Assembly (NCBI GenBank): GCA_017414965.1
Contig: JAFQJL010000021.1
Span: 13,886-77,885 of the forward strand
Length of the DNA stretch: 64,000 nt
Source of the DNA: Clostridia bacterium
GTDB lineage: Bacteria; Bacillota; Clostridia; Oscillospirales; Acutalibacteraceae
Direction: 5' to 3'
In this document: one piece after another, positions 4,380-41,348 of the stretch
How positions within the stretch are numbered: the first letter of the stretch is position 1
How the letters are laid out: every line of letters begins with the position of its first letter
Made by a program: the position numbers and the translations under genes
The notes under the pieces: generated by a model
Databases searched by the model: none
The model's input: the letters and a program-made list of their open reading frames with translations, nothing else
Told to the model about the DNA's origin: nothing

Positions 4380-4401
4380 GAGCACATAAATCTTTTCCAA
4401 A

Positions 4402-4672
4402 AGCGTTTGAGCGGAAATCAGTACCCGTTTGTCGCTATTTAAGAGAGCTGCTGGCTGGTGTGAAGCAGTATGGCAAAAACGGCGAATTCCTTCCGCAAGC
4501 TGTATACTGAAGGCTAGTCGGCTGAGTAGGTTGTCCGGGTTCGACCGTTACATCGAGGCGGGTGTGTTTGCACCTTATGAGGCTCTTTTTGTGAAAAAAG
4601 GGCGAAGCAGAGTGGTACCACGGTCATTGACTGTCCCTGTTTATTCCTTCGGGAATGAACAGGGATTTTTTA
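4402..4672 (+). promoter_or_regulatory. T-box riboswitch leader; candidate specifier TTC (Phe)
   Basis: AGTA (4420-4423) and GAA (4484-4486) S-turn halves; AGAGAG bulge (4442-4447); distal loop TGGCTGGTGTGAA; T-box sequence AGAGTGGTACCACGG (about 4609-4623); terminator CCCTGTTTATTCC-TTCG-GGAATGAACAGGG plus T-run (4635-4672). Confidence 0.75.
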
Positions 4673-10085: not shown

Positions 10086-10178
10086 TCAAAAACCGTCTTT
10101 GCCGTATATGCAAGGACGGTTTTTGTTGCTTTTTGGCAGGGGATGTGGTAAGATACAAACAGAAACGAGGTGTCGTCT

Positions 10179-20310: not shown

Positions 20311-20400
20311 GGAGAAGTACTCAAGTGGTGACGAGGCGCCCCTGCTAAGGGCGTAGGTCGGGTAACCGGCGCGAGGGTTCAAGTCCCTCCTTCTCCGCCA
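20311..20400 (+). tRNA. tRNA-Ser (anticodon GCU)
   Basis: GGAGAAG acceptor, anticodon loop CTGCTAA, long variable arm, GGTTCAAGTCC T-arm, encoded CCA. Confidence 0.9.
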
Positions 20401-20553: not shown

Positions 20554-20577
20554 GAGCGATTGCTCAATGTCATTAAG
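20554..20577. repeat. left island junction: direct repeat GAGCGATTGCTC (20554-20565) plus terminal inverted repeat AATGTCATTAAG (20566-20577)
   Basis: Exact match to the right junction, read directly from the sequence. Confidence 0.85.
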
Positions 20578-22159: not shown

Positions 22160-22600
22160 TCACACGGCGGAATGATAAAATTCTTTATTTCCCATATGAT
22201 TCTCAATGGAACGCCATCTAAGCCCCGAAGCACAAATCAAAGTACCTGCATAATTATCTAGATCGGGTTCTGACAAATTACCGCAGTCACACCAATAAAT
22301 ATTTTCATCTTTCATAATCATTGTAGAATCTAATATTTCGCAGGTATAACTTTCATTAACAGGAAAAAGTTTTAAGTGTTTTAATCCTTGAAATTCCATC
22401 TCTATCATAGAGTTCTTTTCGTATTGTCGTTGAATTACAACTCGTAGAACCCTACGATCATTCAAGGGATGCATTGAAAGGTTTTCACTAACATATGCTC
22501 CACTTATATAACTTATTTCTTTTATGCAACTATCGTGAAAATAGCATACATTTTCCATAAACTTCAACATTTCGTCGTTAGTACGAATTATCTCCCACAT
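22160..22600 (-). CDS. putative immunity protein for the RHS C-terminal toxin
   Basis: 146-aa cytoplasmic protein starting (MWEIIRT, AAGGAAA RBS) 20 nt after the RHS stop. This is the canonical toxin-immunity arrangement. Confidence 0.6.
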   Translation of the reverse strand: MWEIIRTNDEMLKFMENVCYFHDSCIKEISYISGAYVSENLSMHPLNDRRVLRVVIQRQYEKNSMIEMEFQGLKHLKLFPVNESYTCEILDSTMIMKDENIYWCDCGNLSEPDLDNYAGTLICASGLRWRSIENHMGNKEFYHSAV

Positions 22601-22619
22601 AGATGTTTCCTTTCTTAAA

Positions 22620-25600
22620 CTAACCAAATATCAAAATCAAACCTTCTCCAACACCTGTGCCTAACGGTCCAAACAAGAAATCATCAGCAACACCAATTCC
22701 TGTGGCATCATCTGCAGCTACAACAACAATTCCAACAACACATATGGTAACAAGCCCAACACCTAAAACAGGATCTAGTGAAAATTCATAATCTGGCGAC
22801 GGTGGCAGATGGTCTTTTTGTCTTTGTCCATTTTTCCATTCGTGATCGTGTGGGAATGGAATGTCTTTTCCTGGATGATTGTAATCTCTATCTCTAACCG
22901 CATTACCGTCTGGACCATACCATCGTTTCTGTTTAGGAGTTCCGTCAGGATTCGGTAAAGTTTGACTTGAACCTGGTTCCCCTGTTGGTGGCAAATTATT
23001 TGCAGTAGACACAACAACTGAAGAAGAAGGAAAAAAGAAATTCTTTACTGGCTGAATAATATTTTTATTTACCCAATTTGCTGCTGTTTCTATCCACTTA
23101 GGCCAGTTACCTGTCGGATCAGACATATTTACAGGATTGTTCATACAATATGTAAACATATTGTTGCCTAAAATACTTCCACCGACACCGGATATTTGAT
23201 TATCCGCATTAATAAATCGGCCAATTTGCGGATCATAGTAACGGCTGGATGCGTAGTAGAGTCCTGTTTCGGCATCGTAGAAATAGCCGCGATAGCGGAT
23301 GGGGTTGACGGTGCCGATGCCAACGGAGGTGGTATCCGTCATATTGATGAGGTTGCCCCAGGCATCGTATTCGTACGAAACCACCATCGCTCCTTCGGGG
23401 TTGTAGATCCCCACGACGTCGCCGCGCGCATTGGTCGCCACGTAATAACCGACATATCTTGTGTCGTCGTCCGCGTTATAATAATACTTGATCGCCGAGA
23501 GATTGCCGTAGCTGTCATAAGAATAATGAATGTGCCGTCCGTCGCGGATTTCGCCGTGAAGCTGCCCGTCAATATACAGGTATTCGCTCTTGACGCCGTT
23601 GACCGTCTTGGAGGTACGCATACCGTTGTCGTCATAGGTATAGGCAACGGCCGTATTCCCTTTGCTATAACTGCTCAGTTGCCGTCCGTTTTGCCAGCCA
23701 AGCGTGGCGCCCAGATAAGAAACCGGATTGCCGATCTCGTCGTACGTGATTGTGCCGGTCGGAGAAGAAAGCGTCGAGCCCGCTTCGGTAGAAACAGAGC
23801 GCAGCGGTTTTGCCCACGGAGCATCACCGGCACTGCCGTAACCGTAATTATCACAATGGATATGGGTCAACGTGCTCAAGTTCTCCGTAGCGAGATCGGT
23901 GTAGTTATATACCTTGCGACTCAAGCGGTTGCCATATCCGTCGTACGTATAATGGGTGGTTTGGTTTGTTGAAACGAAATTTTCGCGAATGAGCTGGCCG
24001 AGGGCATCGTATTCGTAGGAAGCGTAATCGACAAAGTTTCCGGTTGTGCCGTTTGCCAAGACCTCGCCCTTTTCGATTTCGATGATATTGCCGGCCTCAT
24101 CGTACGTATACCGATACGCCGCGTCGTTAATGGTTTCGACCTCTAACAGCGTTGTTTGATAGAGAGTCTGACTTCCTGTGTTACGGTCAGAACGGTAATA
24201 GGAGTAGGTGTTGGTCAGCGGTGTTTCGGTCGAGAAGGTACGGGCAGTCAGGCGGTTGAGCCCGTCATACGAATAGTCCGCATAGCGAACGCTGGTATAC
24301 AGGTATCGCGTCGGCAGATTGTCGGCCGCATAGCGTTCGGTGGCGGTTTTGCCCGAAATAGCGGAGTAAAGGTATTTTGCCGAATGGGTATGACCGGCAT
24401 ACTCGACAGCCAACTTGGTGAGGTTGTTGCGGCCGTCGTAACCGAACTCTACCATACCGATATGCGTGCCGGTGGTGGATTGAATTAAGGTTTGAATGGG
24501 ACGGTTAATAGAGTCGTACGAATAGGAGAATTTTCGACCCGCAACCAAATCTGTGAACGATTGCAAGGTGCCGCCGGAATCGTACGTGTAATTAAACAGG
24601 GTGTTGGTACCGTTGCCGATAGTGGCGATTTGCCCGAGCCAGCTATAGGAATAGGTCCGAACGTCGCCATTTCCATAGGTGGCGGTTTTCAGTTTGCCGT
24701 TGTTGGCGGCGTAGGTATTTGAGGAAAGCAGATGGCCGTTTACCGACGTGGAAAGCGTGTTTCCAAACCGATCCACTTCAAACGAATACGTATCGGAGCC
24801 GTAGCTCAGCGTATCCAGTCGGTCTCCGTCGTAGGTGTAGGAAACGGTGCCAAGAGAGTGATTGGCGGCATCGGTAACGGTGACGGAGGATAGGCGATCG
24901 TTTGTACTCGAAACGTAGGTGTTGGTGGTCTTGTTGCCGGACGGGGATGTAATGGTAGAAGTGCGGGCATATCCATCGTAGGTATATGTCGTTTTTTTGT
25001 TGTCGGCGTCAACCACAGAAGCGATCTGGGCGCCGGCTTGGATATTCCCTTTAGCTCCAGTATATGTCACATCGGATTTAAATGCAAGTGTTTCATCCTC
25101 ACTTTTTACAACACTCGAAGTGGCCTGACCTCTGGTATTGTAGGTAAAGGTGGTGGTGACGTCACCGGCGGAGGTGGCACTTAATAAGTTGTGCTTGGCA
25201 TCGTAGGTATAGTTATAGTCATAGCCAAGCGCATCCGTGGCGGACGTCATATCCGGTCCGTCGTATTCCATCGTGGATTTTTGCTCTGCGTTGGCAGCGG
25301 TGGAGATCAAATTGCCTTCGTCGTCGTACGTATAGGTGTTCGCATTGTCCCGTATCAACTGGATCCAGTCAAAATACAGAAAATTGGCTTGATTTCTGCT
25401 CCGCGGTCGCACCAGAATGCTTGTCGGTGTGTCGCTGGCATTTTGCGAAGAAACGAGACTGATCACCTGTGAGGCATACTGCCAACCGGTGATGGCGGTA
25501 TTAAACTTTACTGCCGGCTTCGTTTCGGAATAAGTCGTGCCGTCGGCCTTCTTATAATTGACCGCCACATAAATCTCTGCCAAGCAGTTTTCGTGATTGG

Positions 25601-28600
25601 TTCCCTGAGTCGGCGTGCCACACATCCAACCACTCAGAATGTACGTTTCGTTTGGATCTCCGGAGACTGCAACCGATTGCGACAGATACTTATTGCTGTT
25701 AACGCTGGTTCCCATGCGAATGCTGGCGGTGCCCTGAATCTGATTGGAATGGGTGATGCCTTGGGTTACGATAGAGTCATAAGTGGAATACGTAATGTTG
25801 GTAGCCGTCCAATTGCTCGGGAGATGCTCGGAGGTCTCTTTCTCAAAGCTGCAGTTTTGGATGAGGTTGACCGGATGAGCGGTAGTATTCTGCTCCAATT
25901 GAATGCCGTCTACATAGGCGGTACCGGTCATATTGCGGAGAGCGATAGCCGTTCGAACCGATGTGGAATCGGACGGCAGATCGAACGTGACCGATAAACG
26001 GCGCCAGCCGTTGTCAATAGCGGTATCATTGACCGTATCAATGCACTTGGAGCGAACGGTATGTGCGATTCCGCCACTGTCATAACTAACCGAAAGATAT
26101 ACGCCGTTTAATGCATCGCTGTAAACAGAGGTCAGGGTTGTCGTCTTCACATACGCAGAAAACGTATAGGTATTTCCGGCGTTGAGACCCGTTACCGTTT
26201 GTCGGAAATCGGCACGGCCGGCAAGAGCCCCGATGGCAGTGTTGTTGATTTTAATGGATTTCTTTCCGAAATACGCATAGGTAGAGGATGCCGCAACCGT
26301 GGAAGTGGCATTGGTGATAACGGGCGTCCATCCGGTCATACTCTCAACGTTGCCGTTATCTGTGAAATTAACGACGTTTCGACCAAAAGCAGAGGAGATC
26401 ACCACGCGGTTTTGATTTTTCAGTGCGGCGGTGCTTTCCGTGGAATAATCGGTATAGCGGGCGGAAGAGGCGCCGGTGCTCGTCCCCGACATATATCTTG
26501 TCATAGTAGAGGTCAACCGACCAAGGTTATCGAACTGGCAGATGGTCTGCATATCGTCCGAATTGCCGTACACATCGTCTTTGCCGGAGACACGAATGAC
26601 GGTGGTGTTATACTTGGAACGATCAAAACTGACGATTTGCCCAGTCAAACGATTACCTGCGGAATCCGCCGCGCTGTACTCGGTAATTCTGCTGACGCGT
26701 TTGCCGGTAGCCAACGTCGTATACGTAAAGCCAAGCCGATAGTCGGCGTCATCGGTTACGGTCAGCATCGAAAGCGGAGAGGTCGTTTCATAGGTGAAGT
26801 TTGCAACGGTGCCGCCGTAATAGGAGATCTGGCGAACAGTACCGTTGGAATTGCGGTAGAAGTACATCTTTCTACCGAACGGGTCGGTGATGGATTGGAC
26901 GTTGTTGGAGTTGCTGTAATTGAAGGTATACTTATAGCCGGAGCCATCGACGATATAATCAATCTTTTCTCCCTCGCCGATATCAGTCATGTTGCCGGTC
27001 TCCTCAGCGGTGCCCGCCGGCAGAAATGCGATGTCGATCGTTTGGCCGTTGGCGTTGACCATTTGTTTTAGGTTTCCAGCGGAATTAAAGCGGAGTTTAT
27101 TTCCTTCTTTATCACTGATTGTGTAATAAGAAACACTGGTTTTGGGAATGGTGAGTTTCAGGCCGAGACCATCTTCGTCCAAAAACGTAGTCGTTCCGTT
27201 TTCAACCTTTCTTACAAAATAATGATCGGTGCCGTCGGCATCGGTATAGACATACGGGTACTTTTCTTGCATTTCTCCCGTTAAATTGAATTTTGTTGAT
27301 GAAAGTACGGTCTGGTGAACGCTTAAACGCCAACCAGTACCTATGATGGATTTAGAGGAATGGTTGTGGCCGATGTTGTAGTTTATATTGGAGATATAGC
27401 CGTTATATACTAGGTTCATTGACAGAGGCATATTCTGGCTCGGCGAGGTAAACAACGGCGCGACAAAAACCGGGTTGCCGGTGTAGTCGTTTACGTACAT
27501 CGTACCCGCCGTTCCTGCCGGGGCTGCCGTATAGGTCCAATAATCCTCTAAACCCCGATTATTGCGATAGTCAATGATGATAACCGGATACTTGGCGGCA
27601 ATGTCTTCGTCGCTCGTATAGATTTCAGAGCCAAACCAACAAACTGCCAGGTCGGTTTCGGTTTTTGTCTTCAGCATAATGCCATTATTGGCAATTGAGC
27701 CTTCATACCATTGCTTCACAGAACGGGTAATATCGAAATACCGCCATTCCGGTGCAGCAGACACATCTGTGATGAAACAATAATCGTTAACAAGCGAGTC
27801 TGCCAACGAGGGCTGATTGTTCCATGTGACAGACGACGCCGACCAACTACTCCCGATGGTATGTGCGTTGACCTGCATATTTGCCCCGTCTACAAAGCTA
27901 CTGTGCCACATCCGCATAGCGAGATTGGCACCTACAACCATATCGCCTTTGTTCAGTGCCGGCAGATTGAATTTTACCAAGGTGCGCGTTTTGCCATAGG
28001 CATAGGAATCATATCCCACCGAACGAAAGCTTTGTCCGGTGCTGAAATTGGTGCTTGCGTACTCGCTGTCGGAGGCGATAAATGCCGAATCAATTTCTTC
28101 GCGATCTTGCTCAGTGGTAATTATTGGGTCGATTATAACCGGGAAAGTCGTTTCTTCGCTGTTGACCCACGCCGGATCTGCCGTTATTGTAAGAATGGCT
28201 TTATTTTTCGCGCTGCTCAACTCATAAGAAACGGCGGTGGAAATCCGGCCGGCAGAATCGATCATATAAGGAGCGGGAATAACAAATACCACTTCTCCCG
28301 TATCGTTGGCCATCGCCTTGATTCCGCCGTCATCACCGGCGACAAGAGAAACACCCTTGGTTTTGAATTCAAAGGTGTAGGAATATGTATCTGCCGCAGA
28401 ATGGAGGATGATGTTTTCTTTGATTCCTGTTGGAGAGACCTCGTAGTTCAGCGAGGCGTTTTCCTCGAAATAATCATAGGTAATGGACGAGGAAATGGCG
28501 GAAACCGCCTCCATAACTGGATCGGTTCCCTCAACTCGGGCCTTCACGTTACCGGTGACGTTTCGTTTTGTTTTAGAAACGTAATTCCAAGATAGCCGAT

Positions 28601-29027
28601 AGTTTTCTTTATCGATGCGAACAAGCTTGCTACTATTTAGGTTGTTAGCAAATTTAACAGTAAACGGACCACCAGTGGCGATTTGACCGTTCACGTCGTC
28701 CTCTGCCGTTGCCGCTTGGGCGATCAAGGTGTTATCAATGTCCGTCCACTCTCCCTCTTTCAGATAATGGACGGGTGTTGAATAAATAACCGCGCGAGAA
28801 GTGTGATCGCTCATAAAAAAATGCTTTATATTTTCTTCGCGCCGTGAGGTGTCTTCACCTAAAACAACGGGGGCGTTTTCGGTTTCCTCAACCGCAGAGG
28901 TTGTACTTTCTGCAGGAGAGGTGTCGGCAAGAGCCGGAAGCCCTTGCAAAGGGATAAAAAATACAAGCAAAACAAAAGACATGACGAAAGCAATGATACG
29001 ACACATTCGTTTGATAGTTTGGCTCAT
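22620..29027 (-). CDS. secreted RHS/YD-repeat polymorphic toxin (2135 aa)
   Basis: N-terminal Sec signal. Dozens of YxYDxxGNL YD repeats. RHS core end RYYDPQIGRFINAD...NNPVNMSDPTGNW, followed by a 160-aa variable C-terminal domain. Confidence 0.9.
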   Translation of the reverse strand: MSQTIKRMCRIIAFVMSFVLLVFFIPLQGLPALADTSPAESTTSAVEETENAPVVLGEDTSRREENIKHFFMSDHTSRAVIYSTPVHYLKEGEWTDIDNTLIAQAATAEDDVNGQIATGGPFTVKFANNLNSSKLVRIDKENYRLSWNYVSKTKRNVTGNVKARVEGTDPVMEAVSAISSSITYDYFEENASLNYEVSPTGIKENIILHSAADTYSYTFEFKTKGVSLVAGDDGGIKAMANDTGEVVFVIPAPYMIDSAGRISTAVSYELSSAKNKAILTITADPAWVNSEETTFPVIIDPIITTEQDREEIDSAFIASDSEYASTNFSTGQSFRSVGYDSYAYGKTRTLVKFNLPALNKGDMVVGANLAMRMWHSSFVDGANMQVNAHTIGSSWSASSVTWNNQPSLADSLVNDYCFITDVSAAPEWRYFDITRSVKQWYEGSIANNGIMLKTKTETDLAVCWFGSEIYTSDEDIAAKYPVIIIDYRNNRGLEDYWTYTAAPAGTAGTMYVNDYTGNPVFVAPLFTSPSQNMPLSMNLVYNGYISNINYNIGHNHSSKSIIGTGWRLSVHQTVLSSTKFNLTGEMQEKYPYVYTDADGTDHYFVRKVENGTTTFLDEDGLGLKLTIPKTSVSYYTISDKEGNKLRFNSAGNLKQMVNANGQTIDIAFLPAGTAEETGNMTDIGEGEKIDYIVDGSGYKYTFNYSNSNNVQSITDPFGRKMYFYRNSNGTVRQISYYGGTVANFTYETTSPLSMLTVTDDADYRLGFTYTTLATGKRVSRITEYSAADSAGNRLTGQIVSFDRSKYNTTVIRVSGKDDVYGNSDDMQTICQFDNLGRLTSTMTRYMSGTSTGASSARYTDYSTESTAALKNQNRVVISSAFGRNVVNFTDNGNVESMTGWTPVITNATSTVAASSTYAYFGKKSIKINNTAIGALAGRADFRQTVTGLNAGNTYTFSAYVKTTTLTSVYSDALNGVYLSVSYDSGGIAHTVRSKCIDTVNDTAIDNGWRRLSVTFDLPSDSTSVRTAIALRNMTGTAYVDGIQLEQNTTAHPVNLIQNCSFEKETSEHLPSNWTATNITYSTYDSIVTQGITHSNQIQGTASIRMGTSVNSNKYLSQSVAVSGDPNETYILSGWMCGTPTQGTNHENCLAEIYVAVNYKKADGTTYSETKPAVKFNTAITGWQYASQVISLVSSQNASDTPTSILVRPRSRNQANFLYFDWIQLIRDNANTYTYDDEGNLISTAANAEQKSTMEYDGPDMTSATDALGYDYNYTYDAKHNLLSATSAGDVTTTFTYNTRGQATSSVVKSEDETLAFKSDVTYTGAKGNIQAGAQIASVVDADNKKTTYTYDGYARTSTITSPSGNKTTNTYVSSTNDRLSSVTVTDAANHSLGTVSYTYDGDRLDTLSYGSDTYSFEVDRFGNTLSTSVNGHLLSSNTYAANNGKLKTATYGNGDVRTYSYSWLGQIATIGNGTNTLFNYTYDSGGTLQSFTDLVAGRKFSYSYDSINRPIQTLIQSTTGTHIGMVEFGYDGRNNLTKLAVEYAGHTHSAKYLYSAISGKTATERYAADNLPTRYLYTSVRYADYSYDGLNRLTARTFSTETPLTNTYSYYRSDRNTGSQTLYQTTLLEVETINDAAYRYTYDEAGNIIEIEKGEVLANGTTGNFVDYASYEYDALGQLIRENFVSTNQTTHYTYDGYGNRLSRKVYNYTDLATENLSTLTHIHCDNYGYGSAGDAPWAKPLRSVSTEAGSTLSSPTGTITYDEIGNPVSYLGATLGWQNGRQLSSYSKGNTAVAYTYDDNGMRTSKTVNGVKSEYLYIDGQLHGEIRDGRHIHYSYDSYGNLSAIKYYYNADDDTRYVGYYVATNARGDVVGIYNPEGAMVVSYEYDAWGNLINMTDTTSVGIGTVNPIRYRGYFYDAETGLYYASSRYYDPQIGRFINADNQISGVGGSILGNNMFTYCMNNPVNMSDPTGNWPKWIETAANWVNKNIIQPVKNFFFPSSSVVVSTANNLPPTGEPGSSQTLPNPDGTPKQKRWYGPDGNAVRDRDYNHPGKDIPFPHDHEWKNGQRQKDHLPPSPDYEFSLDPVLGVGLVTICVVGIVVVAADDATGIGVADDFLFGPLGTGVGEGLILIFG

Positions 29028-30809: not shown

Positions 30810-31496
30810 ATGATTTATATTACCGGTGATATTCACGGTAATCCTACGCGAATCGTTCGGTTCTGCGAAGAAATGCAGCTTACCGACAAAGATATCGTTG
30901 TCCTTTTGGGGGATGTTGGTGCCAACTATTACGGCGGCAAGAAAGATCGATTCGTAAAGCGTGTTCTTTCGTCTTTGCCGGTTACCTTTTTGTGTGTCCA
31001 CGGAAACCACGAGATTCGCCCACAAAACATCCCCACGTACAAAACAACCCTCTGGAACGACGGTTGCGTGTTTGTAGAGGACGACTACCCCAATATCCTC
31101 TTTGCCGAAGACGGAGAAATTTATAATCTTGATGGCAAAAAAGCACTCGCCATTGGTGGCGCCTACAGCGTAGACAAGTTCTACCGTTTGCAAAGGGGTT
31201 TTGGATGGTGGGCGGACGAGCAACCGTCCGATATCATTAAACAAAAAGTAGAAAGCGTTATGGAGGACAATAAACATATTGACCTTATCCTGTCCCACAC
31301 CTGTCCCAAAAAGTATGTTCCCACCGAAATGTTCCTTCCGATGATTGACCAAAGCACGGTTGATCACTCCACCGAGGAGTGGCTGGATACTATTGAAGAG
31401 AAGGTGCTTTATAGCGCGTGGTACTGTGGTCATTGGCACACAGACAAGCGTATTGATCGACTTCACTTTCTGTTCAAAACATTCGAAACATTATAA
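30810..31496 (+). CDS. metallophosphoesterase (calcineurin-like)
   Basis: GDIHG, GDxxxxxY and VHGNHE motifs. Confidence 0.75.
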   Translation: MIYITGDIHGNPTRIVRFCEEMQLTDKDIVVLLGDVGANYYGGKKDRFVKRVLSSLPVTFLCVHGNHEIRPQNIPTYKTTLWNDGCVFVEDDYPNILFAEDGEIYNLDGKKALAIGGAYSVDKFYRLQRGFGWWADEQPSDIIKQKVESVMEDNKHIDLILSHTCPKKYVPTEMFLPMIDQSTVDHSTEEWLDTIEEKVLYSAWYCGHWHTDKRIDRLHFLFKTFETL

Positions 31497-32447: not shown

Positions 32448-33155
32448 ATGGTTTATGTTATGTCGGACATCCACGGTTGCGGTTCGAGGTTTGAAAATGT
32501 TCTGCAAAAGATTAATCTACAATCGGAGGATGCCTTATATATTCTGGGTGATGTGATTGACCGCGGCCCCGACGGTATTCGGGTGCTGCGCCGTATTATG
32601 AATACACCAAATATGAAGATGCTCTTGGGCAACCACGAATATATGATGTTGGAGTCCTTGTATTATCCTTCTCTTGAGAAAAACAAACACATTTCAAAGG
32701 ATTGGATTCAAAAAACCAAAGTGGACGTGTGGTATCGAAACGGTGGTCGTGTTACGCATGATTATCTGAAACACATTCAAAAATCTGTTCGGCAAGAGGT
32801 ATTTGAGTATGTGGCCGATTTGCCGTTAAACATTCCTATTGAAGTCAACAGCCAAAAATATCTACTTGTCCACGCGGCTGTGGTTGATAATTTTGAGAAA
32901 TATGGCTATGAATATGCCGATCGTACTGAGTATGCGGTTTTTTCAAGGGATGTTTATCGTGAACCGGTTCCGGAGGATACGGTAGTTGTTTTTGGTCATA
33001 CCCCAACAATGTATTTTGAGTATGATAATCCTTTGCAGATTTGGAAGACCGAGAATCGAATTGGTATTGACTGCGGTTGCGCCATCAAACAGTCATTTAG
33101 CCGTCTTGGATGTCTGCGGTTGGATGATCTGCAAGAGTTCTATTCCGACGATTAA
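32448..33155 (+). CDS. metallophosphoesterase (lambda-phosphatase/ApaH-like)
   Basis: SDIHGC, LGDVIDRGPDG and GNHE motifs. Confidence 0.8.
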   Translation: MVYVMSDIHGCGSRFENVLQKINLQSEDALYILGDVIDRGPDGIRVLRRIMNTPNMKMLLGNHEYMMLESLYYPSLEKNKHISKDWIQKTKVDVWYRNGGRVTHDYLKHIQKSVRQEVFEYVADLPLNIPIEVNSQKYLLVHAAVVDNFEKYGYEYADRTEYAVFSRDVYREPVPEDTVVVFGHTPTMYFEYDNPLQIWKTENRIGIDCGCAIKQSFSRLGCLRLDDLQEFYSDD

Positions 33156-33423: not shown

Positions 33424-34527
33424 TTAAATTGCATTCGGTAGATTTGGCTGAGGCAAATTGTTAATACATTGCCGTTTGAATTCCAGCGAGGGGTGCAGAT
33501 AGATGTCGGATGTGATTCGCGTACTGGAGTGCCCTAGAAGTTCAGATAAAGATTTAAGTTCAACGTTGTTTTCCGCACAACGGGTGGCAAACGTATGGCG
33601 CAAACCATGAAACGAAACGTCTGTTACGCCGATGGCGGCGAGATACTTCTTAGCGCGATAATGCATCACTCGCGGCTCAACGATGCTCTGTGTTGGAGTG
33701 CTGAGGAAATAGCAATGCTCCTCTCGCCGAAAACGCTCAACTGACCCTTGTAGAAAATCCGGAATGGGCACGATGCGAGTGGAGGTATTTGTTTTGGGAG
33801 GGCCGATATATATTTCTGTGCCGACTCCATTAGCTTTTTTCAAGCGTTGCATGGTTTTTGAGACATAGATGCACCCATTTGATATATCGCCCCAAGTGAG
33901 CGCACAGATCTCGCCAATTCGCAGACCGCTATATAGAGTTAACAGAACACCTAATTTGGATATATCCATATCTTCTACCAAGTATGCCAACAATCGTTGT
34001 TGCTCCTCGGCGGTAAGGGCCCGGCGGCGCTTTTTTGATTCCGGCAAATACGATATTTCCGGAACTGGAAGCCGATACTGCCGGTATCCGTATTGAAAAC
34101 AAGTGTGGAGAAATACCAAAATGGTATTTACAGTTTGAGGGGACAACCCGCCACTCAAGCGGTCGAGAGAAAATTCGTGAATTTTAAGCGGTGTGAGGAA
34201 AAGAATTGGCAGATCTCCGATATGCGGTTCAATATGATTCCGAAAGAAGCCGTCGTATTTTTGATAAGAAGATCGTCTTAGTCGTGAAGTATTGATATGA
34301 AGCCATTCGCTTGCCAACATGGATACTGTAATTTTTCTGGAGCAGAGTTCCCGTTGGTATAAACGAATTTGATCTTCTTTTTCTTGGCGCTTCTCTTTTG
34401 CCTCTTTACAGGTGTGGGCATATACAGAGCCATATTGTTTTCTGCCGGCTTGATCGTATCCTCTTACATAGCGTGCTTCCCACAATCCATTCTTGCGATG
34501 GTAAACTCCGGTTCCTTTTTTAGGCAT
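33424..34527 (-). CDS. tyrosine-type site-specific recombinase/integrase
   Basis: C-terminal catalytic HGLRHTFAT...LLGHSSTRITSDIYLH. N-terminal arm-binding-like domain. Own terminator at about 33345-33385. Confidence 0.9.
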   Translation of the reverse strand: MPKKGTGVYHRKNGLWEARYVRGYDQAGRKQYGSVYAHTCKEAKEKRQEKEDQIRLYQRELCSRKITVSMLASEWLHINTSRLRRSSYQKYDGFFRNHIEPHIGDLPILFLTPLKIHEFSLDRLSGGLSPQTVNTILVFLHTCFQYGYRQYRLPVPEISYLPESKKRRRALTAEEQQRLLAYLVEDMDISKLGVLLTLYSGLRIGEICALTWGDISNGCIYVSKTMQRLKKANGVGTEIYIGPPKTNTSTRIVPIPDFLQGSVERFRREEHCYFLSTPTQSIVEPRVMHYRAKKYLAAIGVTDVSFHGLRHTFATRCAENNVELKSLSELLGHSSTRITSDIYLHPSLEFKRQCINNLPQPNLPNAI

Positions 34528-34741: not shown

Positions 34742-35734
34742 ATGGCAAAGTTTTGTACGAAATGCGGGAACCCCGTAGAAGACGGACAGGTGTGCTTGTG
34801 CACAGAAACGCCGCCTATGCAAGGGGTTAAAGACCGTCTGTCCGATATTCTGGGAAAGGTGGCAAATCTCATCGGCTTGGATCTGGGCAGCAACCACGTT
34901 CTGAATCCGTATGAACGCGGCCAACAGATCGTACCGGACAACATCCGTGCCGATGAGGGCGAACAGCCCATCAAGCAATATAACTTAGCACTGTTGCGGT
35001 CTCGCATCCTCTTTAAGCGTGCGGAAGGCCGTCTGCAGGTCACCAACAAACGACTGATCTTCCGCGCGACCGGGATTTCCCTCACCGGCAACACCGTCTT
35101 GCAACACGAGTTTGCTATTCCGGAGATTGCCGGCGTGGAAATCCGCAAATCCAACCGATTCAGCTTCTTGAGCTTGTTTGCGGCCGTTATCGGATCTTTG
35201 ATCGTATGCGGCGCGGCCAACAGCATTTTTTCCTCAATCCTGACAACTTCGGCTTTTTCCTCGCTGGTTGCCTACCTGATCGCTTTTGTAAGCGGCGCGT
35301 CCTTTTTCCTCTTCAAGAAGAAGTTTTGGCTGAAATTGCTCCTGTTATCCATCGGAATGAGCGTGATGCCGGTCTTGACCAACTCGATCACGCTTTCTGC
35401 AGTGATGCTGGGTGGTGAGCATATTGTAAAAAGTCTGCTGACCTTCCCAAACCTTGTAGCTTCGTTACTGGATATTCTGTGGATCTTAGGCGTGATTTTG
35501 GTGTGTATGGTGCCGGACTTAAAAGTGTGCATTAAAACGAAATCGGCCGGCGATGCTATCCAAATCCGCAGAAAAATCTGGGGCTTCGGATTGAAACAGC
35601 ACGACGAGTTCAGTGGATTCTCAGAAGTGCTCCCCGCCGCCGATACCGACTGCGCCGCCAAAGAACTTGGTGCGATGATTGACGATTTGCAAACACTTGG
35701 CGATATGGCGATTGAGAAATGGAAGGAGAATTAA
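34742..35734 (+). CDS. zinc-ribbon / bacterial PH(GRAM)-like / multi-pass membrane protein
   Basis: CTKCG...CLC ribbon. EGRLQVTNKRLIFRATG PH/GRAM-like strand pattern. About 4 hydrophobic helices and a soluble C-terminal tail. Confidence 0.6.
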   Translation: MAKFCTKCGNPVEDGQVCLCTETPPMQGVKDRLSDILGKVANLIGLDLGSNHVLNPYERGQQIVPDNIRADEGEQPIKQYNLALLRSRILFKRAEGRLQVTNKRLIFRATGISLTGNTVLQHEFAIPEIAGVEIRKSNRFSFLSLFAAVIGSLIVCGAANSIFSSILTTSAFSSLVAYLIAFVSGASFFLFKKKFWLKLLLLSIGMSVMPVLTNSITLSAVMLGGEHIVKSLLTFPNLVASLLDILWILGVILVCMVPDLKVCIKTKSAGDAIQIRRKIWGFGLKQHDEFSGFSEVLPAADTDCAAKELGAMIDDLQTLGDMAIEKWKEN

Positions 35735-35736
35735 TT

Positions 35737-35982
35737 GTGATTATAAAATTCGCATCAGATCTCATTAAAATAACCTTTGAGAAAAACGAGCCCTTTGAGG
35801 ATCGTTCCTTGGTTGTTTATGGTGAAGTAATAACCTGCGGATTTGCGGCTATTGTTCCCACAATGAGTTGGTTGTCTCCCTATAAAAAAGATGTTTCTAA
35901 CAACGAATTGCCCTTAATTCGCGATTTAATTCAAAATTATAATAAAGAAAGCAAGTTTTTTATTGACTTGGTTGAGGGTTAA
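35737..35982 (+). CDS. small 81-aa protein (candidate immunity/antitoxin for the adjacent NADase-like protein)
   Basis: GTG start 8 nt after a GGAAGGAG RBS, 2 nt after the upstream stop. Its stop lies 2 nt before the next ATG. Confidence 0.45.
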   Translation: MIIKFASDLIKITFEKNEPFEDRSLVVYGEVITCGFAAIVPTMSWLSPYKKDVSNNELPLIRDLIQNYNKESKFFIDLVEG

Positions 35983-35984
35983 CC

Positions 35985-36770
35985 ATGTTTGATATTGATT
36001 CTTGCTATAGCTGTTTTGCAACAGAGCCCAATTCAGCATATTTCTGGTCTGGTTTGGGGGAAAAAGGAGAGGATATTGCTGCCAATATAGCAAAAGAGAA
36101 CAATGGTGTAACCCTTGAAACATTAATGCGCGAACATAAGGATGAACTGATAAACGCCGGATTTGAATATGATAAAGAACTGGACCGTTTTCTTTTTTCT
36201 CCAGACAATTACTCTGATTGGGAGGCAATCTCTAAAGCTTACGCGGAACAAGCATCTGGCGAGGTGCGCGCTATTTTGGGAGATAATATACGCCAAGATA
36301 GCGTATGGAATACCAAAGAACAACCGGCATTATCAAACAACAATACTGTCAGCAAAATAATTTCTGTTGATCCTAAAACAGGTCAAGAGAAAGATGTTTT
36401 GTTGGATAAATCCGCAATACAAGAATCTGCATATTCTCAAAACGCCCCCCTGAGCATATCATCAACCAATATTAAATCCATTGGCGGTGGCGGTTCTCGC
36501 GCGCCAGATCAATTAATAGCCGGCAAATCACCACCTCAAACCGTCTCCCAGGAGTCCGGTTCGACCGCAGAAACCGCGGGACGGTTGCCTCAACAAACTC
36601 AAACTCCGGTGACGGCCACAGATACACAACAATCGGGCACCACGCCGGACAAAAAGCAAAACATTGATATTCCATCAAAACAATCCAACTTTGCAGTTTC
36701 AAACGATCTTGCGCAAACAGCAGATGAAAAACCTATCAAAGGTGTGGATGTTGCATCTGGTGTTACCTAA
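35985..36770 (+). CDS. ADP-ribosyl cyclase/CD38-like (Tox-ARC) NAD-glycohydrolase-fold protein with disordered P/Q/T-rich C-terminal half
   Basis: YFWSG...VTLETL...DWEAISKAYAEQASGEV...DSVWNTKEQPAL aligns with few gaps to Aplysia cyclase MFWSG...ITLEDTL...FWGMASSSYAHSAEGEV...DSFFGKYELPNL (recalled from memory). This includes the catalytic Glu position (E112, nt 36318-36320). Confidence 0.65.
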   Translation: MFDIDSCYSCFATEPNSAYFWSGLGEKGEDIAANIAKENNGVTLETLMREHKDELINAGFEYDKELDRFLFSPDNYSDWEAISKAYAEQASGEVRAILGDNIRQDSVWNTKEQPALSNNNTVSKIISVDPKTGQEKDVLLDKSAIQESAYSQNAPLSISSTNIKSIGGGGSRAPDQLIAGKSPPQTVSQESGSTAETAGRLPQQTQTPVTATDTQQSGTTPDKKQNIDIPSKQSNFAVSNDLAQTADEKPIKGVDVASGVT

Positions 36771-36779
36771 GGAGGTTTT

Positions 36780-38099
36780 ATGAACACAAATAAAAAACAA
36801 CAATCCTCCGTGTTGTTTGGCGAAGAATTACATAGGGCTTGTCCCAACATTACAGAAAATAATGCCAGTTGCTATTTGCAAGGAGTCGATTCGTCCGGAC
36901 AAGCTGTCACGTTTCCTATGAGTGTAGATCTGCTGAGCAAACACATTCTGCTTTTGGGCGGTATCGGAACGGGTAAGACCAATACGTTTAATCAAATGAT
37001 CGCGCAGTTGAATCAAACCATTACCAGCGATGACATTGTGATCATTTTTGATGCCAAAGGTGATTTTTACCGCGAGTTTTATCGCCCGGGCGACGTGGTG
37101 ATCAGCAACGATTCTACTGCCATCGGCAAAGGTGTATTGGATTACTGGAACATTTTTAATGAAATCGACCGCGGGGAGCGCTTGACAGAGAGTGTCGTAG
37201 AGATATCGAAAGCATTGTTTGCGGAAGCGTGCGAGAAAACCAACCAAATCTTCTTCCCAAACGCTGCTAAGGATATCTTTATGGCGTGCCTATTGCATTT
37301 TATTCGCCACTATTCGCTGGAACAGCAGACAAACGAAAATCTGGTGTATTACATTAACGCCAGTAGTTCGGCAGACATTCGCGCTATGTTGGAGTCGTAT
37401 GACGATCTGCGTGCGATGAGCAGCTACATTTCCAATGACGAATCCCCGCAAACGCAGGGCGTGTTGTCGGAATTGCAACAGGTCGTTCGTGAGATCTTTC
37501 TTGGAAACTTTGCCAAGACGGGAACTCTTTCGCTAAAACATCTGGTGAATGCAAAAGGTGGCATTCGGGTGTTTATCGAATACGATTTGAGCATCGGAAA
37601 AATGCTGTCCCCGGTATACAGTTTGATGTTTGATATGGCGATCAAAGCCGCCCTCAGCCGAAACCGTAGTGCCGGCAACGTGTATTTCATCACCGATGAA
37701 TTCAAGTTGCTGCCGCACCTTAATCACATTGATGATGCGGTAAATTTCGGCCGAAGTCTTGGCATCAAATTTATGGTCGGCGTGCAAAACGTGGAACAGA
37801 TCTACGACAACTACGGTGAGGACCGCGCCCGAAGCATTATGTCGGGTTTTTCCACCAATATCTGTTTTCGCGTCAACGATGCAAAATCCCGTGAATATAT
37901 CCAAGGATTGTTTGGCAAAAACCAAAAAATCGAAACATATATGCCGACTATCCAAAATAAAGGAATGATTGAGGCCCAGCGTGAAGCCAACGTGGTGGAG
38001 GACTGGGATATTACGCGGTTAAATATCGGCGAGGCCATAGTCGGTCTGCCGGGATACGAACCGTTCGTGTTTCAATTTGAACGTTACAAGGAGAAATGA
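36780..38099 (+). CDS. soluble TraD/TrwB/VirD4-like (type IV coupling protein family) P-loop ATPase
   Basis: Walker A GGIGTGKT; VIIFDAKGDFY; YWNIFNEI; FFPNAAKDIFMACLLHF; Walker B VYFITDEF; VGVQNVEQIYDNYGEDRARSI. No N-terminal TM segment. Confidence 0.7.
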   Translation: MNTNKKQQSSVLFGEELHRACPNITENNASCYLQGVDSSGQAVTFPMSVDLLSKHILLLGGIGTGKTNTFNQMIAQLNQTITSDDIVIIFDAKGDFYREFYRPGDVVISNDSTAIGKGVLDYWNIFNEIDRGERLTESVVEISKALFAEACEKTNQIFFPNAAKDIFMACLLHFIRHYSLEQQTNENLVYYINASSSADIRAMLESYDDLRAMSSYISNDESPQTQGVLSELQQVVREIFLGNFAKTGTLSLKHLVNAKGGIRVFIEYDLSIGKMLSPVYSLMFDMAIKAALSRNRSAGNVYFITDEFKLLPHLNHIDDAVNFGRSLGIKFMVGVQNVEQIYDNYGEDRARSIMSGFSTNICFRVNDAKSREYIQGLFGKNQKIETYMPTIQNKGMIEAQREANVVEDWDITRLNIGEAIVGLPGYEPFVFQFERYKEK

Positions 38100-39244
38100 A
38101 AATGAAATATTGCGAAAATTGTGGCGCTCCTATTAAATTTATGGAGAAGCACGTTTGTCCAAACGAGGATGGAAATCCTACTGTTTTGGCCACCGAAAAA
38201 CCGCCGTTTCCAAAAAAATATAAGATTTTGATTGGTTGCGTCTGTCTGGCGGTATTTATTGGCCTGATAATTGCCTCATCCGTAGGGGTTGGAAAAATTG
38301 ATCCATTTGATTATACCAGCGTTTCTTTTGAGGGATACGATTCCGCCGGTCGTGTTTCTGTTTTCTTTGATGAGGATGCACTGATCCAAGAAATCATTGG
38401 GCCGGAACCGAGCGATTTAGGGGAAGAATACGCTGAATGGTTTATGAAGTACGATACATATTCGACATGTGTCAAATGTCAATATGAGCCCGAGGAAGGG
38501 CTCTCCAATGGTGATACAGTTACGGTTACGTTCACGGTCGATGATACCGTAACGAGCCGGATCAAAGCAGGTAAAAAGGAATTTACGGTTGAGGGTTTGC
38601 CGGAATTAGAAAAAATTGATGTGTTTAGTAATGTGGTGCTCAAGTATGAAGGCGTTGAAGGTCAAGCACACGCGATGGCAACCATCGGTTTGGATGTCAG
38701 TTTTTTTAACGATATTCGTATGAATATTGAGCCAAACGAAAATTTGAAAAACGGAGACATTATTACCGTTTCGGTTTCGAACGTCGATGACTTAGCCGAA
38801 ACTTATCAACAAATTCCGGCCGAGATCTCACGACAATATACCGTAGAGGGATTACCGTCGTATATTACGGAAGCTTCTCAGGTCCCGGTAGACGAGGTGA
38901 AATCGTTGGCGGCGGACTTTTTAAAGGAGAAGCAAGCGAATATAAAGGATGAAGCATTCTTTTCCTATTCCGATGTCAAATTGTATGGCATATATTTTAT
39001 GGAGCCCAAAGAAGGAACTTATGAAGATCCTTCTCTTTGGATTGTTGTTTCCTGCAAAGAATATATGGATGGGAGTTTTAGAGACAACCTGTACTTCCCT
39101 TTAAAATTCGATGACCCTATCATTCAGCCGGATGGCACGATGGGATATAAGTGGGACGATGGAGAACACGCAACTTTTCTCACAGGCGATTCATTCCCAA
39201 TGGAGTATGTTACAGCGAAATACAATGTGACGAAGATATTATAA
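38096..39244 (+). CDS. zinc-ribbon, single-pass membrane protein with repeated extracytoplasmic beta-rich domains
   Basis: CENCG...HVCPN ribbon, TM helix ILIGCVCLAVFIGLIIASSV, repeated NGDxxTV(T/S) units. ATG overlaps the ATPase stop. Confidence 0.6.
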   Translation: MKMKYCENCGAPIKFMEKHVCPNEDGNPTVLATEKPPFPKKYKILIGCVCLAVFIGLIIASSVGVGKIDPFDYTSVSFEGYDSAGRVSVFFDEDALIQEIIGPEPSDLGEEYAEWFMKYDTYSTCVKCQYEPEEGLSNGDTVTVTFTVDDTVTSRIKAGKKEFTVEGLPELEKIDVFSNVVLKYEGVEGQAHAMATIGLDVSFFNDIRMNIEPNENLKNGDIITVSVSNVDDLAETYQQIPAEISRQYTVEGLPSYITEASQVPVDEVKSLAADFLKEKQANIKDEAFFSYSDVKLYGIYFMEPKEGTYEDPSLWIVVSCKEYMDGSFRDNLYFPLKFDDPIIQPDGTMGYKWDDGEHATFLTGDSFPMEYVTAKYNVTKIL

Positions 39245-39249
39245 AATAA

Positions 39250-39284
39250 AACGCCTCGGATTTTTAATCCGAGGCGTTTTTTGT
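39250..39284 (+). terminator. operon terminator
   Basis: AACGCCTCGGA-TTTTTA-ATCCGAGGCGTT hairpin plus T-run. Confidence 0.85.
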
Positions 39285-39699: not shown

Positions 39700-41348
39700 C
39701 TACAGTGGCATTATATAGTACTTTACTTAATTTGTCAAGAGTTTACATGTTTCGAGGATGCTTTGAAAAGCATCCTCCTTTTTTACGGAGGAAATACCAA
39801 AACAGAAAGGATAACAAAATGTACTTCGTAAAAAAGATCGACGAAAGCTTTTCCCAGGCGTTAAAAGATATTGTCTCTAACCGAAAGCAATATGTAAGAA
39901 ATCCTCTAACGGATTTTACTCGAAAACGAAAAATGAATATGCGGGATGTTATATCTCAAATTCATTCTATGACTGGTGGTTCGCTTCAAAAAGAGTTATA
40001 TGATTGGTCGAAAATCAAGAAGATTTCTCTTACGGCTTCGGCGTTTGTACAACAAAGGTCCAAAATTCTTAGCGATGCATTTAAAGATATTTTCTATCAC
40101 TTTAACTCCTACTGTAATGACTCTAAAAAATATCGAGGTTATCGATTGATTGGAGTAGATGGAACAGATGTAAGTTGCCCGCGCAATCCCGATTCTCCCA
40201 ACTTTATAACAACATCACAATCTCCGGAAGGAGTTAATCGCATACATGTTAACGCCCTTTATGATTTATGCAATCACACATATGTTGATATCCTATGTCA
40301 ACCCCCAAAGCAGGCAGACGAAAGAGCTGCATTAATCGAGATGTTACACCGAAAAGCGCTTAAAGAAAAGACGCTTTTTGTGTTTGACCGTGGATATGAG
40401 AGTTACAATTTATTTGCGCACATAATTAATACGGAGAATGCAGATTTCGTATGTCGAGTGAGACAGAGCAATAGCGGAATGAGTAAAATCAAAACACTTC
40501 CTATGAAAGAATTTGATATAGATATTACTTTTGATATTACAACCACACAAACGAACGAGGATAAACTTCAAGGGCGCATATGGATTCAAACCGGAAGCAA
40601 AAAGGGCAAGATCAACAGCCCTAAGACAAGAGTTAGACAGTGGGATTTCCCTTCGCCGTATTCATTAAAACTAAGAGTGGTGCGCTTTTTGTTGGATAGT
40701 GGAGAATATGAAACTTTAATTACATCGTTAAGTAGAGAGGAGTTTTCGCTTCAAGATCTCAAAAAACTTTACCATGAGCGGTGGAATATTGAGATATCTT
40801 TCCGTGACTTAAAATATCCTATCGGATTGACTTATTTGCATAGCAAAAAAGATGATTTGATTCTGCAGGAAATCTATGCTGCGGTTACCATGTACAATTA
40901 TTGTAGCAGAATTGCCAGTAGTGTGGATATAAGTCGCTATAATGGCCGAAAACATGCATATAAGGTGAATTTAGCTATGGCTATACATATATGCAAACGC
41001 TTTTGTCTTTCTAATACTAAAAAATACAAAAGCTTACTTAATGACATAAATAGGTATGTAATTCCCCTTCGTCCCGGACGAAGGGATGAGCGAAAAATGC
41101 GACCAAAACGATTTGTCGGATTTATATATCGTGTGGCCGCGTAAGAAAAGCAAGTTTATACTTGCTTTTCTCGTCATACCAAAAATCGAAGAATTTCTTC
41201 ATTTTTCGCCTTAATTATAAGTGCAAAACTCATTTTAAACGCAATTTTATGCTTTTTATTTTTAAATTTCTTAACTTAATGCACGTTTCACAAAAAGAAA
41301 AAGATAGAGAGCGAAAAATTTCTTTTCACACTCTATCTTAATGACATT
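39700..41348 (+). mobile_element. IS4-family insertion sequence copy (proximal left end imperfect and approximate)
   Basis: Transposase gene plus right end CTTAATGACATT (41337-41348). A possible proximal left end, TGGCATTATATAG (about 39704), resembles TGTCATTAAGATAG of the right end. Confidence 0.5.
39819..41144 (+). CDS. IS4-family DDE transposase
   Basis: YHERWNIEISFRDLKY matches the Y-(2)-R-(3)-E-(6)-K signature; DDE_Tnp_1-like layout. ATG at 39819 after an AAAGGA RBS. Confidence 0.85.
   Translation: MYFVKKIDESFSQALKDIVSNRKQYVRNPLTDFTRKRKMNMRDVISQIHSMTGGSLQKELYDWSKIKKISLTASAFVQQRSKILSDAFKDIFYHFNSYCNDSKKYRGYRLIGVDGTDVSCPRNPDSPNFITTSQSPEGVNRIHVNALYDLCNHTYVDILCQPPKQADERAALIEMLHRKALKEKTLFVFDRGYESYNLFAHIINTENADFVCRVRQSNSGMSKIKTLPMKEFDIDITFDITTTQTNEDKLQGRIWIQTGSKKGKINSPKTRVRQWDFPSPYSLKLRVVRFLLDSGEYETLITSLSREEFSLQDLKKLYHERWNIEISFRDLKYPIGLTYLHSKKDDLILQEIYAAVTMYNYCSRIASSVDISRYNGRKHAYKVNLAMAIHICKRFCLSNTKKYKSLLNDINRYVIPLRPGRRDERKMRPKRFVGFIYRVAA

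Follow-up and report, generated by a model that had tools for sequence, protein, structure and literature searches.

A five-gene operon in a stretch of Clostridia DNA most likely encodes an antibacterial toxin that destroys nicotinamide adenine dinucleotide (NAD), together with its immunity protein and a machine of three proteins by which the toxin is probably exported. The stretch analyzed, here called the window, comprises 64,000 nt of the genome of a Clostridia bacterium (GCA_017414965.1, contig JAFQJL010000021.1, 13,886-77,885 of the forward strand), and positions are those of the window unless a related locus is named. The products of genes 1 to 5 are called A to E. In the reading that we favor, to which we give a probability of roughly 0.6, tail-bearing toxins have a trafficking apparatus of their own in A, D and E, which would export C, and B would protect the producer. 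An earlier note on this DNA had labeled the operon a candidate conflict system, and the label was right. The toxin type is already known. The new part is genes 1, 4 and 5.

Organization of the operon

All five open reading frames (ORFs) lie on the plus strand. Gene 1 (34739 or 34742 to 35734) encodes protein A of 331 or 330 residues. It is followed by gene 2 (35737-35982; protein B, 81 residues, or 87 residues from an alternative ATG at 35719), gene 3 (35985-36770; protein C, 261 residues), gene 4 (36780-38099; protein D, 439 residues) and gene 5 (38096-39244; protein E, 382 residues). The gaps are 2 nt between A and B, 2 nt between B and C, and 9 nt between C and D, and the D and E genes overlap by 4 nt (38096-38099). 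The operon is closed by an intrinsic terminator at 39248-39280 (plus strand), a bidirectional hairpin with a 15-bp stem containing seven GC pairs, followed by a T-run. The co-directional, tightly packed ORFs are thus all present with the junctions given in the earlier note, and the strong terminator that it placed at 39250-39284 has been located.

The nearest database copies of these genes come from Clostridia metagenome-assembled genomes (MAGs) and are annotated as hypothetical proteins only. The same gene order occurs in independent genomes, and the arrangement is therefore not a chance run of ORFs.

The toxin and its disordered tail

Protein C consists of an N-terminal catalytic domain and a long C-terminal tail. 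Residues 1-142 (35985-36410, plus strand) were assigned by profile and Foldseek comparisons to the Tac1 family of ADP-ribosyl cyclase (ARC)/NAD(P)+ glycohydrolase domains. A direct Pfam search of C returned only a sub-threshold match to ADP-ribosyl cyclase (E 0.008). The domain of 142 residues is common to 28 homologues. Within the family, the FWSG motif (W21), W79, W108 and E112 are invariant, and the TLE motif (E45) is nearly so. Against the PDB, the domain profile matches a type VI secretion system (T6SS) ARC toxin of Pantoea (9ro8_A, 2e-44) and Tac1 of Streptococcus parasanguinis (9ouf_A, 3.5e-44), and the Aplysia cyclase is more distant (1e-4). The AlphaFold2 (AF2) model of the domain has a predicted local distance difference test score (pLDDT) of 95.9. 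With this model Foldseek retrieves 9ro8_A (2.3e-15, TM-score 0.80), 9ouf (1.8e-14), and the CD38 and Aplysia enzymes (1e-5 to 1e-4). By the profile alignment and the published work on Tac1 (PMC12356396), E112 and E45 are the equivalents of E226 and E146 of CD38 and of the catalytic Glu and E516 of Tac1. The profile, the structural model and the invariant E112 bear out the ARC/CD38 fold and the catalytic residue proposed earlier. By these sequence criteria C carries a Tac1-family ARC NADase domain with intact catalytic residues, and its activity is predicted accordingly from them.

One ARC homologue (P0006) has TLA in place of TLE, which puts Ala at the second active-site Glu. In Nac1 and in the Tac1 mutant E516A, Ala at this position favors the release of cyclic ADP-ribose (cADPR) over full hydrolysis.

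Residues 143-261 (36411-36770, plus strand) form a disordered tail of 119 residues, rich in S, Q, T, A, G and P. By composition it is of low complexity and not helical. It contains the sequence GGGGSRAP at residues 167-174 (nt 36483-36506) and ends in ASGVT. A GGGxxAP motif is found in 11 of 20 family members, and most end in Gly-hydrophobic-x-x, a C-terminus seen in only about 8% of background ORFs. No signal peptide was found in C. We propose that the tail is a targeting signal.

The immunity protein

A Pfam search with B alone gave no direct match to Imm74, and the link to this family needed a family profile. A search with the B-family profile finds 56 proteins, including one (P0078) that carries PF15603. 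Imm74 in Pfam is matched by 19 of 31 B-family members (best E 7e-5), and the invariant GE motif of the family fits the published G[DE] signature of Imm74 (PMC3482391). A sequence search with B found no relative in the PDB. On the strength of the family profile, B is a divergent Imm74-family immunity protein for an ARC toxin.

The ARC domain of C and the Imm74 family of B make the two a Tox-ARC/Imm74 pair. The 2012 prediction of such a pair (PMC3482391) was followed in 2025 by the characterization of Tac1/Tci1 and of a Pantoea T6SS ARC toxin (PMC12356396, PMC12605009). Tac1 rapidly hydrolyzes NAD(P)+ and is neutralized by the Imm74 protein Tci1 (PMC12356396). The effector type is therefore not new, and the B/C pair is an ordinary new member of the family characterized in 2025. 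As regards interbacterial toxins, the earlier note is thus outdated where it says that no description of the ARC fold as an effector exists.

A B-like gene before an N-terminal ARC protein also occurs in an unrelated type I secretion system (T1SS) context (L006 and L007). There, an Imm74-like gene and a gene for an N-terminal ARC protein form two pairs in tandem (L006:1813-4814, and L007). The ARC proteins are 346 and 348 residues long and carry a different C-terminal extension. The pairs adjoin a 1376-residue RTX protein and a C39-peptidase ATP-binding cassette transporter with an HlyD-type partner. T1SSs use C-terminal signals. The arrangement suggests that a type I system, too, serves as an export route for ARC toxins that bear C-terminal signals.

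The ATPase and the two membrane proteins

Protein D belongs to the branch of P-loop ATPases that includes the type IV coupling proteins (T4CPs). It matches TrwB_AAD_bind (7e-46), T4SS-DNA_transf (9e-20) and TraG-D_C (1e-16) in Pfam, and its sole PDB match by sequence is the soluble domain of TrwB (2e-13, residues 45-381). The Walker A (GGIGTGKT at residue 60) and Walker B (VYFITDE at residue 301) motifs are both intact. No hydrophobic or transmembrane (TM) segment was found in D, so the N-terminal membrane anchor is not present. Against the NCBIfam models of conjugative T4CPs D falls far under every cut-off, with a best score of 80 bits against a required 250. HerA models match only its P-loop region, at 3.5e-7 or weaker, compared with 7e-46 for TrwB. 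From these matches D is an anchorless TrwB/VirD4-like P-loop ATPase with a nucleotide-binding and an all-alpha domain.

Protein A begins with a CxxC...CxC Zn-ribbon. A PH/GRAM-like beta-sandwich (residues ~76-140) and the four TM helices (140-257) come next, and the C-terminal domain, which is strongly conserved, ends in GDxAIEKWK. Pfam gives weak Zn_Ribbon_1 and GRAM matches, and we take weak Pfam matches (GRAM here, and IFS and TcaA below) as leads and not as assignments. The AF2 model of A has a pLDDT of 82, and Foldseek returns weak PH-domain matches for the beta-sandwich. The even number of helices and the positively charged loops lead to the prediction that both soluble domains of A are cytoplasmic. 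The A family comprises at least 365 clusters at 90% identity, without a Pfam domain or a name, and about 880 diverged representatives (880 at 50% identity), many of them in gut Clostridia.

Protein E has an N-terminal Zn-ribbon, one TM helix (residues 44-62) and a beta-rich repeat ectodomain of ~320 residues, an architecture that resembles TcaA. Zn-ribbon models match 8 of 14 E-family members, and one member matches TcaA_2nd/5th. E homologues follow D in L001, L003, L004, L005, L008 and L059, and E-related proteins precede A in L017, L018, L022, L023, L025, L028, L029 and L031. No LXG/WXG, Lap or EssC match was found by Pfam in any of the five proteins. The descriptions of D as a soluble T4CP-like ATPase and of A and E as Zn-ribbon membrane proteins, with four and one TM helices, have both held up.

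Related loci and exchangeable cargo

Searches of species genomes and metagenomes seeded with A found 47 distinct loci. D is present in all 28 loci that have at least 5 kb of sequence downstream of A. The A-D loci span Clostridia (including Faecalibacterium and Gemmiger), a Peribacillus and a Dyadobacter. ARC and B are found in only 7 of the 47. Several MAGs (L001, L003, L004 and L005) have the integrase, A, B, ARC, D and E all together. The A-D(-E) module is conserved, as is the five-gene order in independent genomes.

The genes between A and D vary among the loci. L017 has an Imm33 protein (1.6e-33) and a GH-E nuclease (2.4e-23), L047 has Tox-HNH-HHH (9e-25), L058 has Endonuclea_NS_2 (2e-18), and L011 and L012 have an HExxH-like protein. 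In L059, L022 and L025, a protein that weakly resembles SPN immunity factor (IFS) occurs together with a domain of no assigned family. One domain of ~230 residues recurs in L005:11071-12171, L008:11451-12515, L017:9724-11103, L028:9341-12817, L033:9254-10420, L036:965-2293 and L042:9425-10591. It has 26 invariant positions and the pattern WQG..FPGHD.YQNG..SGYFTDQAT.DSC..AYG.AE.N.Q.G.GGGNQYYID. It has no Pfam or PDB relative by sequence and is usually preceded by a candidate immunity gene of 150-175 residues. We regard it as a candidate new toxin family.

All cargo proteins examined consist of a globular N-terminal domain and, behind it, a tail of low complexity that is 100 to 900 residues long. 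A Gly-hydrophobic-x-x C-terminus (DGMGM, GGMEM, GYGM, GGIT, SGVT) is common among the tails, again against about 8% of background ORFs. Tails are shared between unrelated domains. In L005 two different N-terminal domains, ARC and an unrelated one, are joined to nearly identical tails, and in L008 a GGGGANAP...SGGIA tail is joined to a non-ARC domain. Pfam found no LXG, WXG or XVIPCD-type helical domain in the tails. The system is thus built on the principle of polymorphic toxins, in which toxin/immunity cassettes are exchanged and the trafficking part stays constant, but in reversed orientation.

Peptidoglycan hydrolase genes accompany some loci. Amidase_3/GH25 lipoproteins directly follow D in L029-L031, and an Amidase_3 gene lies upstream in L011. 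In the first three loci A is followed by D without cargo. The next genes (L029:10156-11988; L030:6724-7782 and 9208-11424; L031:8943-10574) encode Amidase_3+GH25 lipoproteins, several Zn-ribbon-TM proteins and, in L030, a protein with a TIR_2 domain and leucine-rich repeats (LRR).

The earlier note had allowed that the five genes might be a conserved part of a conjugation or type IV secretion system (T4SS) apparatus. In the window, as in L001, L003-L005 and L056-L059, the surrounding ~10 kb contains no VirB4, relaxase or other T4SS gene. Likewise, there are no type VII secretion system (T7SS) genes within 10 kb of the compact A/D/E-like units, and no phage genes or known defense partners alongside the module in the annotated neighborhoods. 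L056-L058 sit among housekeeping genes. A phage origin was considered and rejected. The A family was not found on viral contigs, and PHROG matches only the integrase and the P-loop of D.

Proposed mechanism and alternatives

The alternative raised in the earlier note, that the coupling-protein homologue recognizes the disordered tail of the toxin for export, fits the comparative data best. We infer export from the way in which T4CPs and EssC handle C-terminal signals and from the gene-neighborhood pattern. C would be a reverse-architecture polymorphic toxin with an N-terminal ARC NADase and a long disordered C-terminal tail, and Imm74-like B would neutralize it inside the producer. A would serve as a membrane platform or channel and as the docking partner of D. 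Hexameric, soluble D would dock on the cytoplasmic domains of A and possibly also on the Zn-ribbon of E. As a substrate receptor, D would read the tail and the extreme C-terminus of C, as T4CPs and EssC/EccC of the T7SS do with their substrates, and as a motor it would drive C across the membrane. The division of labor between D and A supports export, since D is the soluble part of TrwB without its anchor and A supplies four TM helices. The wall hydrolases linked to some loci and the ARC proteins beside a T1SS count in favor of export as well. E may be an envelope or target-contact component whose ectodomain aids passage through the wall or contact with the target cell, and the linked peptidoglycan hydrolases may serve wall crossing in some relatives. 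Delivered to a competitor without Imm74, C would deplete NAD(P)+.

Several observations weigh against this reading. No known channel component (VirB6/VirB4, EssC or SecY-like) is present in the operon. For A, a Foldseek search with the whole protein gave nothing significant, and its fold has no match among proteins of known function. The C-terminal motif is degenerate and is not found in some tails (L014, L015, L045). Four loci (L029-L031 and L016) have no obvious toxin between A and D, and in several cargo proteins neither a toxin nor an immunity domain can be recognized, which means that some cargo may be something other than a toxin. A defense model, mad8 of PADLOC, is matched moderately by D (1.4e-21). 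Finally, most related loci are metagenomic contigs on which ORFs were called mechanically.

The lack of a recognizable channel protein in the operon is also what an adaptor would predict. D, with A, could hand tail-bearing toxins to a T4SS or T7SS encoded elsewhere, and the operon would not be self-sufficient. The T4CPs of known systems always feed a separate channel, and it is common for a mobile element to bring a T4CP of its own and to rely on the T4SS of another element (PMC12857230). However, the genes for A, D and E-like proteins, with hydrolases in some cases, form a compact unit across very different genomes, no T4SS or T7SS genes lie within 10 kb of these units, and Pfam found no LXG, WXG or XVIPCD-type domain in the tails. 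We consider an adaptor unlikely.

The combination of a NADase effector with an ATPase of the additional strand, catalytic glutamate (ASCE) class is a known defense design. In abortive infection, D would sense the infection and release or activate the ARC NADase, NAD+ would be depleted, and B would act as an antitoxin. The mad8 match of D, its weak matches to HerA models, the location of the operon within a mobile island, and the TIR-LRR protein of L030 agree with such a role. However, A, B, C and E match no PADLOC model. PADLOC found none of the other genes of the eight-gene mad1-mad8 operon (MADS), whose preprint does not state the domain content of mad8, and the operon contains no SIR2 or TIR domain. 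B comes from a family of interbacterial immunity proteins, and the domains exchanged as cargo are those of classic secreted polymorphic toxins, accompanied in each case by the cognate Imm family. A cytoplasmic system has no role for the tails, the membrane protein, the ectodomain protein or the wall hydrolases. Several loci lie among housekeeping genes and not in defense islands, and the system was not found on viral contigs. An anti-phage function is therefore improbable, and the NAD-depleting system resembling SIR2-HerA that the earlier note put forward is not supported, given the Imm74 identity of B, the exchangeable cassettes and the lack of a PADLOC match for A, B, C and E.

A role confined to the producer is similarly improbable. 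Here D would be an unfoldase that acts on the tail and activates or destroys the toxin in its own cell, and the outcome would be addiction of the island, programmed death or kin discrimination. In favor are the lack of a signal peptide in C, the resemblance of the B and C genes to a toxin-antitoxin pair and, in this sub-clade, the integrase and the island context. On the other hand, the module is also found outside mobile contexts, and the Imm families present are those that act against incoming secreted toxins. Intracellular control would also leave the conserved A, the ectodomain protein E and the wall hydrolases unexplained.

The integrase and the surrounding island

A tyrosine integrase gene (33424-34527, minus strand) lies next to the operon and is divergent from it. 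The protein matches Phage_integrase (2.7e-22), with a SAM-like N-terminal domain, and the PHROG integrase family (1e-64). Orthologues with 49-56% identity lie directly upstream of A in L001, L003, L004, L005 and L008, on the strand of A, and in L059 on the opposite strand. The orientation is thus divergent in the window, L055 and L059 and co-directional in L001, L003-L005 and L008. An integrase is present in 6 of the 47 distinct A-seeded loci and is otherwise not found in A-D loci; it is tied to the system in this sub-clade only. Mobilization of the island by the integrase and a T4CP-like DNA translocase, with the toxin-immunity pair as a stabilizer, could draw on the TrwB/VirD4 homology of D, on the tyrosine recombinase that adjoins the system in seven related loci, and on the relationship of some relaxases (MOBM) to tyrosine recombinases (PMC12857230), but it is very improbable, because no relaxase, VirB4 or mating-pair gene was found near the module and the integrase, of a standard phage type, is rare across the family, while D scores far under every curated conjugative T4CP model and the variable toxin cargo with shared tails would go unexplained.

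Three independent metagenome contigs (L052-L054) end 40-90 nt upstream of gene A, which suggests rearrangement or population heterogeneity at this junction. Inverted repeats flanking the integrase were looked for and none were found. For this reason an invertible switch is not claimed, despite the varying orientation and the contig ends.

The operon lies in a stretch of low GC content (0.39-0.51 across ~19-42 kb of the window, against 0.52-0.59 in the flanks) that follows two tRNA-Ser genes, one of them at 20311-20400. The low-GC island with an integrase, an RHS gene and an insertion sequence (IS), as described in the earlier note, was found again in the GC profile and the neighboring genes. 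A weak 12-nt direct repeat at 20554 and 41349 was considered as a possible pair of island borders and judged not convincing. An RHS-repeat protein of 2135 residues (22620-29027, minus strand) is followed by a 155-residue ORF (22160-22627, minus strand), a candidate immunity gene, and the A-E module therefore neighbors a second polymorphic-toxin locus. The equivalent position in L001, L004 and L059 is occupied by an LHH-nuclease toxin of 831-845 residues and then an array of small genes.

Two genes for calcineurin-like metallophosphoesterases lie at 30810-31496 and 32448-33155 (plus strand). Such genes recur beside the A-E system in the window, L001, L004 and L005, and the copies in L005 (9048-9569 and 9928-10620) separate the ARC gene from the second toxin within the A-D cassette. 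That these enzymes handle ADP-ribose or cADPR products is only speculation. Directly after the operon terminator, an IS element encodes a DDE transposase (DDE_Tnp_1; 39705-41144, plus strand) and is flanked by further hairpin terminators, and the same arrangement is seen in L052 and L053. Rfam gave no match in the operon region. A T-box leader (RF00230, 95 bits) at 4397-4641 on the plus strand is not part of the island and has no connection with the operon.

Novelty and significance

A search of open-access literature, which took in a comprehensive T4SS review of late 2025 and, from 2026, a review on the antibacterial toxins of Gram-positive bacteria, found no description of an A/D/E module or of tail targeting by an anchorless T4CP-like ATPase. 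Gram-positive bacteria are known to export antibacterial toxins by few routes, and a July 2026 review names essentially the T7SSb and Sec-dependent ABP systems (PMC13460014). A further claim can be made, to which we hold only tentatively and at somewhat less than even odds: A/D/E may be a self-contained and previously unrecognized protein secretion system, mainly of monoderm bacteria, without a VirB, EssC or Sec-type channel component, that exports reverse-architecture toxins chosen by a disordered C-terminal tail.

If A/D/E does export toxins, it would represent a further Gram-positive export route, compact with its three core genes and widespread in gut Clostridia. It would also mean that a coupling-protein ATPase can work without a type IV channel and that there is a new kind of disordered C-terminal signal. 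Such a system would bear on competition among gut commensals, on the evolution of T4CPs, and on the engineering of protein export. New families of toxins and immunity proteins could then be located by their position between A and D, and at least one recurrent domain without a Pfam match is already visible there.

Comparison with known systems

The catalytic part of the operon is closest to Tac1/Tci1, the T7SSb LXG toxin of S. parasanguinis, and to Tox-ARC/Imm74 pairs in general. The catalytic family, both active-site Glu residues and Imm74 are the same, and the predicted shared activity is a rapid hydrolysis of NAD(P)+ that would kill cells without immunity. The architecture differs. In the known toxins a trafficking domain (LXG, PAAR, VgrG or CdiA) precedes the ARC domain, which is C-terminal, and the immunity gene is downstream, whereas here the ARC domain is N-terminal and followed by the tail, and the immunity gene is upstream. 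Lap, LXG and EssC genes, which belong to Tac1-type clusters, are not present here, and A, D and E are linked instead.

The coupling proteins TrwB, VirD4 and TraD resemble D in their nucleotide-binding and all-alpha domains and their Walker A and B motifs, with ~340 residues aligned to TrwB. D differs in having no N-terminal TM domain, no linkage to a relaxase, VirB4 or T4SS, and no score above the curated cut-offs. SIR2-HerA and MADS likewise combine a NADase with an ATPase of the FtsK/HerA/VirD4 clade, and the mad8 match of D falls in line with this. Here, however, the NADase is an ARC toxin and is paired with an immunity protein of an interbacterial kind, neither system is represented by any other component, the cargo is polymorphic, and the membrane and ectodomain partners are conserved.

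A C-terminal targeting region is found in two other groups of toxins. The T4SS effectors of Xanthomonas and Stenotrophomonas (X-Tfes) are recognized by VirD4 through a C-terminal XVIPCD domain. Like the present system, they have the toxin at the N-terminus and the recognition region at the C-terminus, their presumed receptor is an ATPase of the VirD4 family, and their toxins are exchangeable and come with cognate immunity genes. In contrast, the present system, from a monoderm Clostridia bacterium, has no VirB1-B11 channel, an ATPase without a membrane anchor, and a low-complexity tail instead of a folded XVIPCD. TslA and TslM of the Staphylococcus aureus T7SSb also have an N-terminal toxin and C-terminal targeting, and an ATPase of the FtsK/HerA superfamily that reads C-terminal features drives their export, as is proposed here. 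Their targeting region is a helical LXG-like domain that acts with partners and EssC, whereas here it would be a disordered tail read by an ATPase of the TrwB/VirD4 branch. In comparison with classical polymorphic toxins (Zhang et al. 2012), the shared trafficking region, the variable toxins and the adjacent immunity genes are all found here, and the classical order of N-terminal trafficking and C-terminal toxin regions is reversed in all cargo examined.

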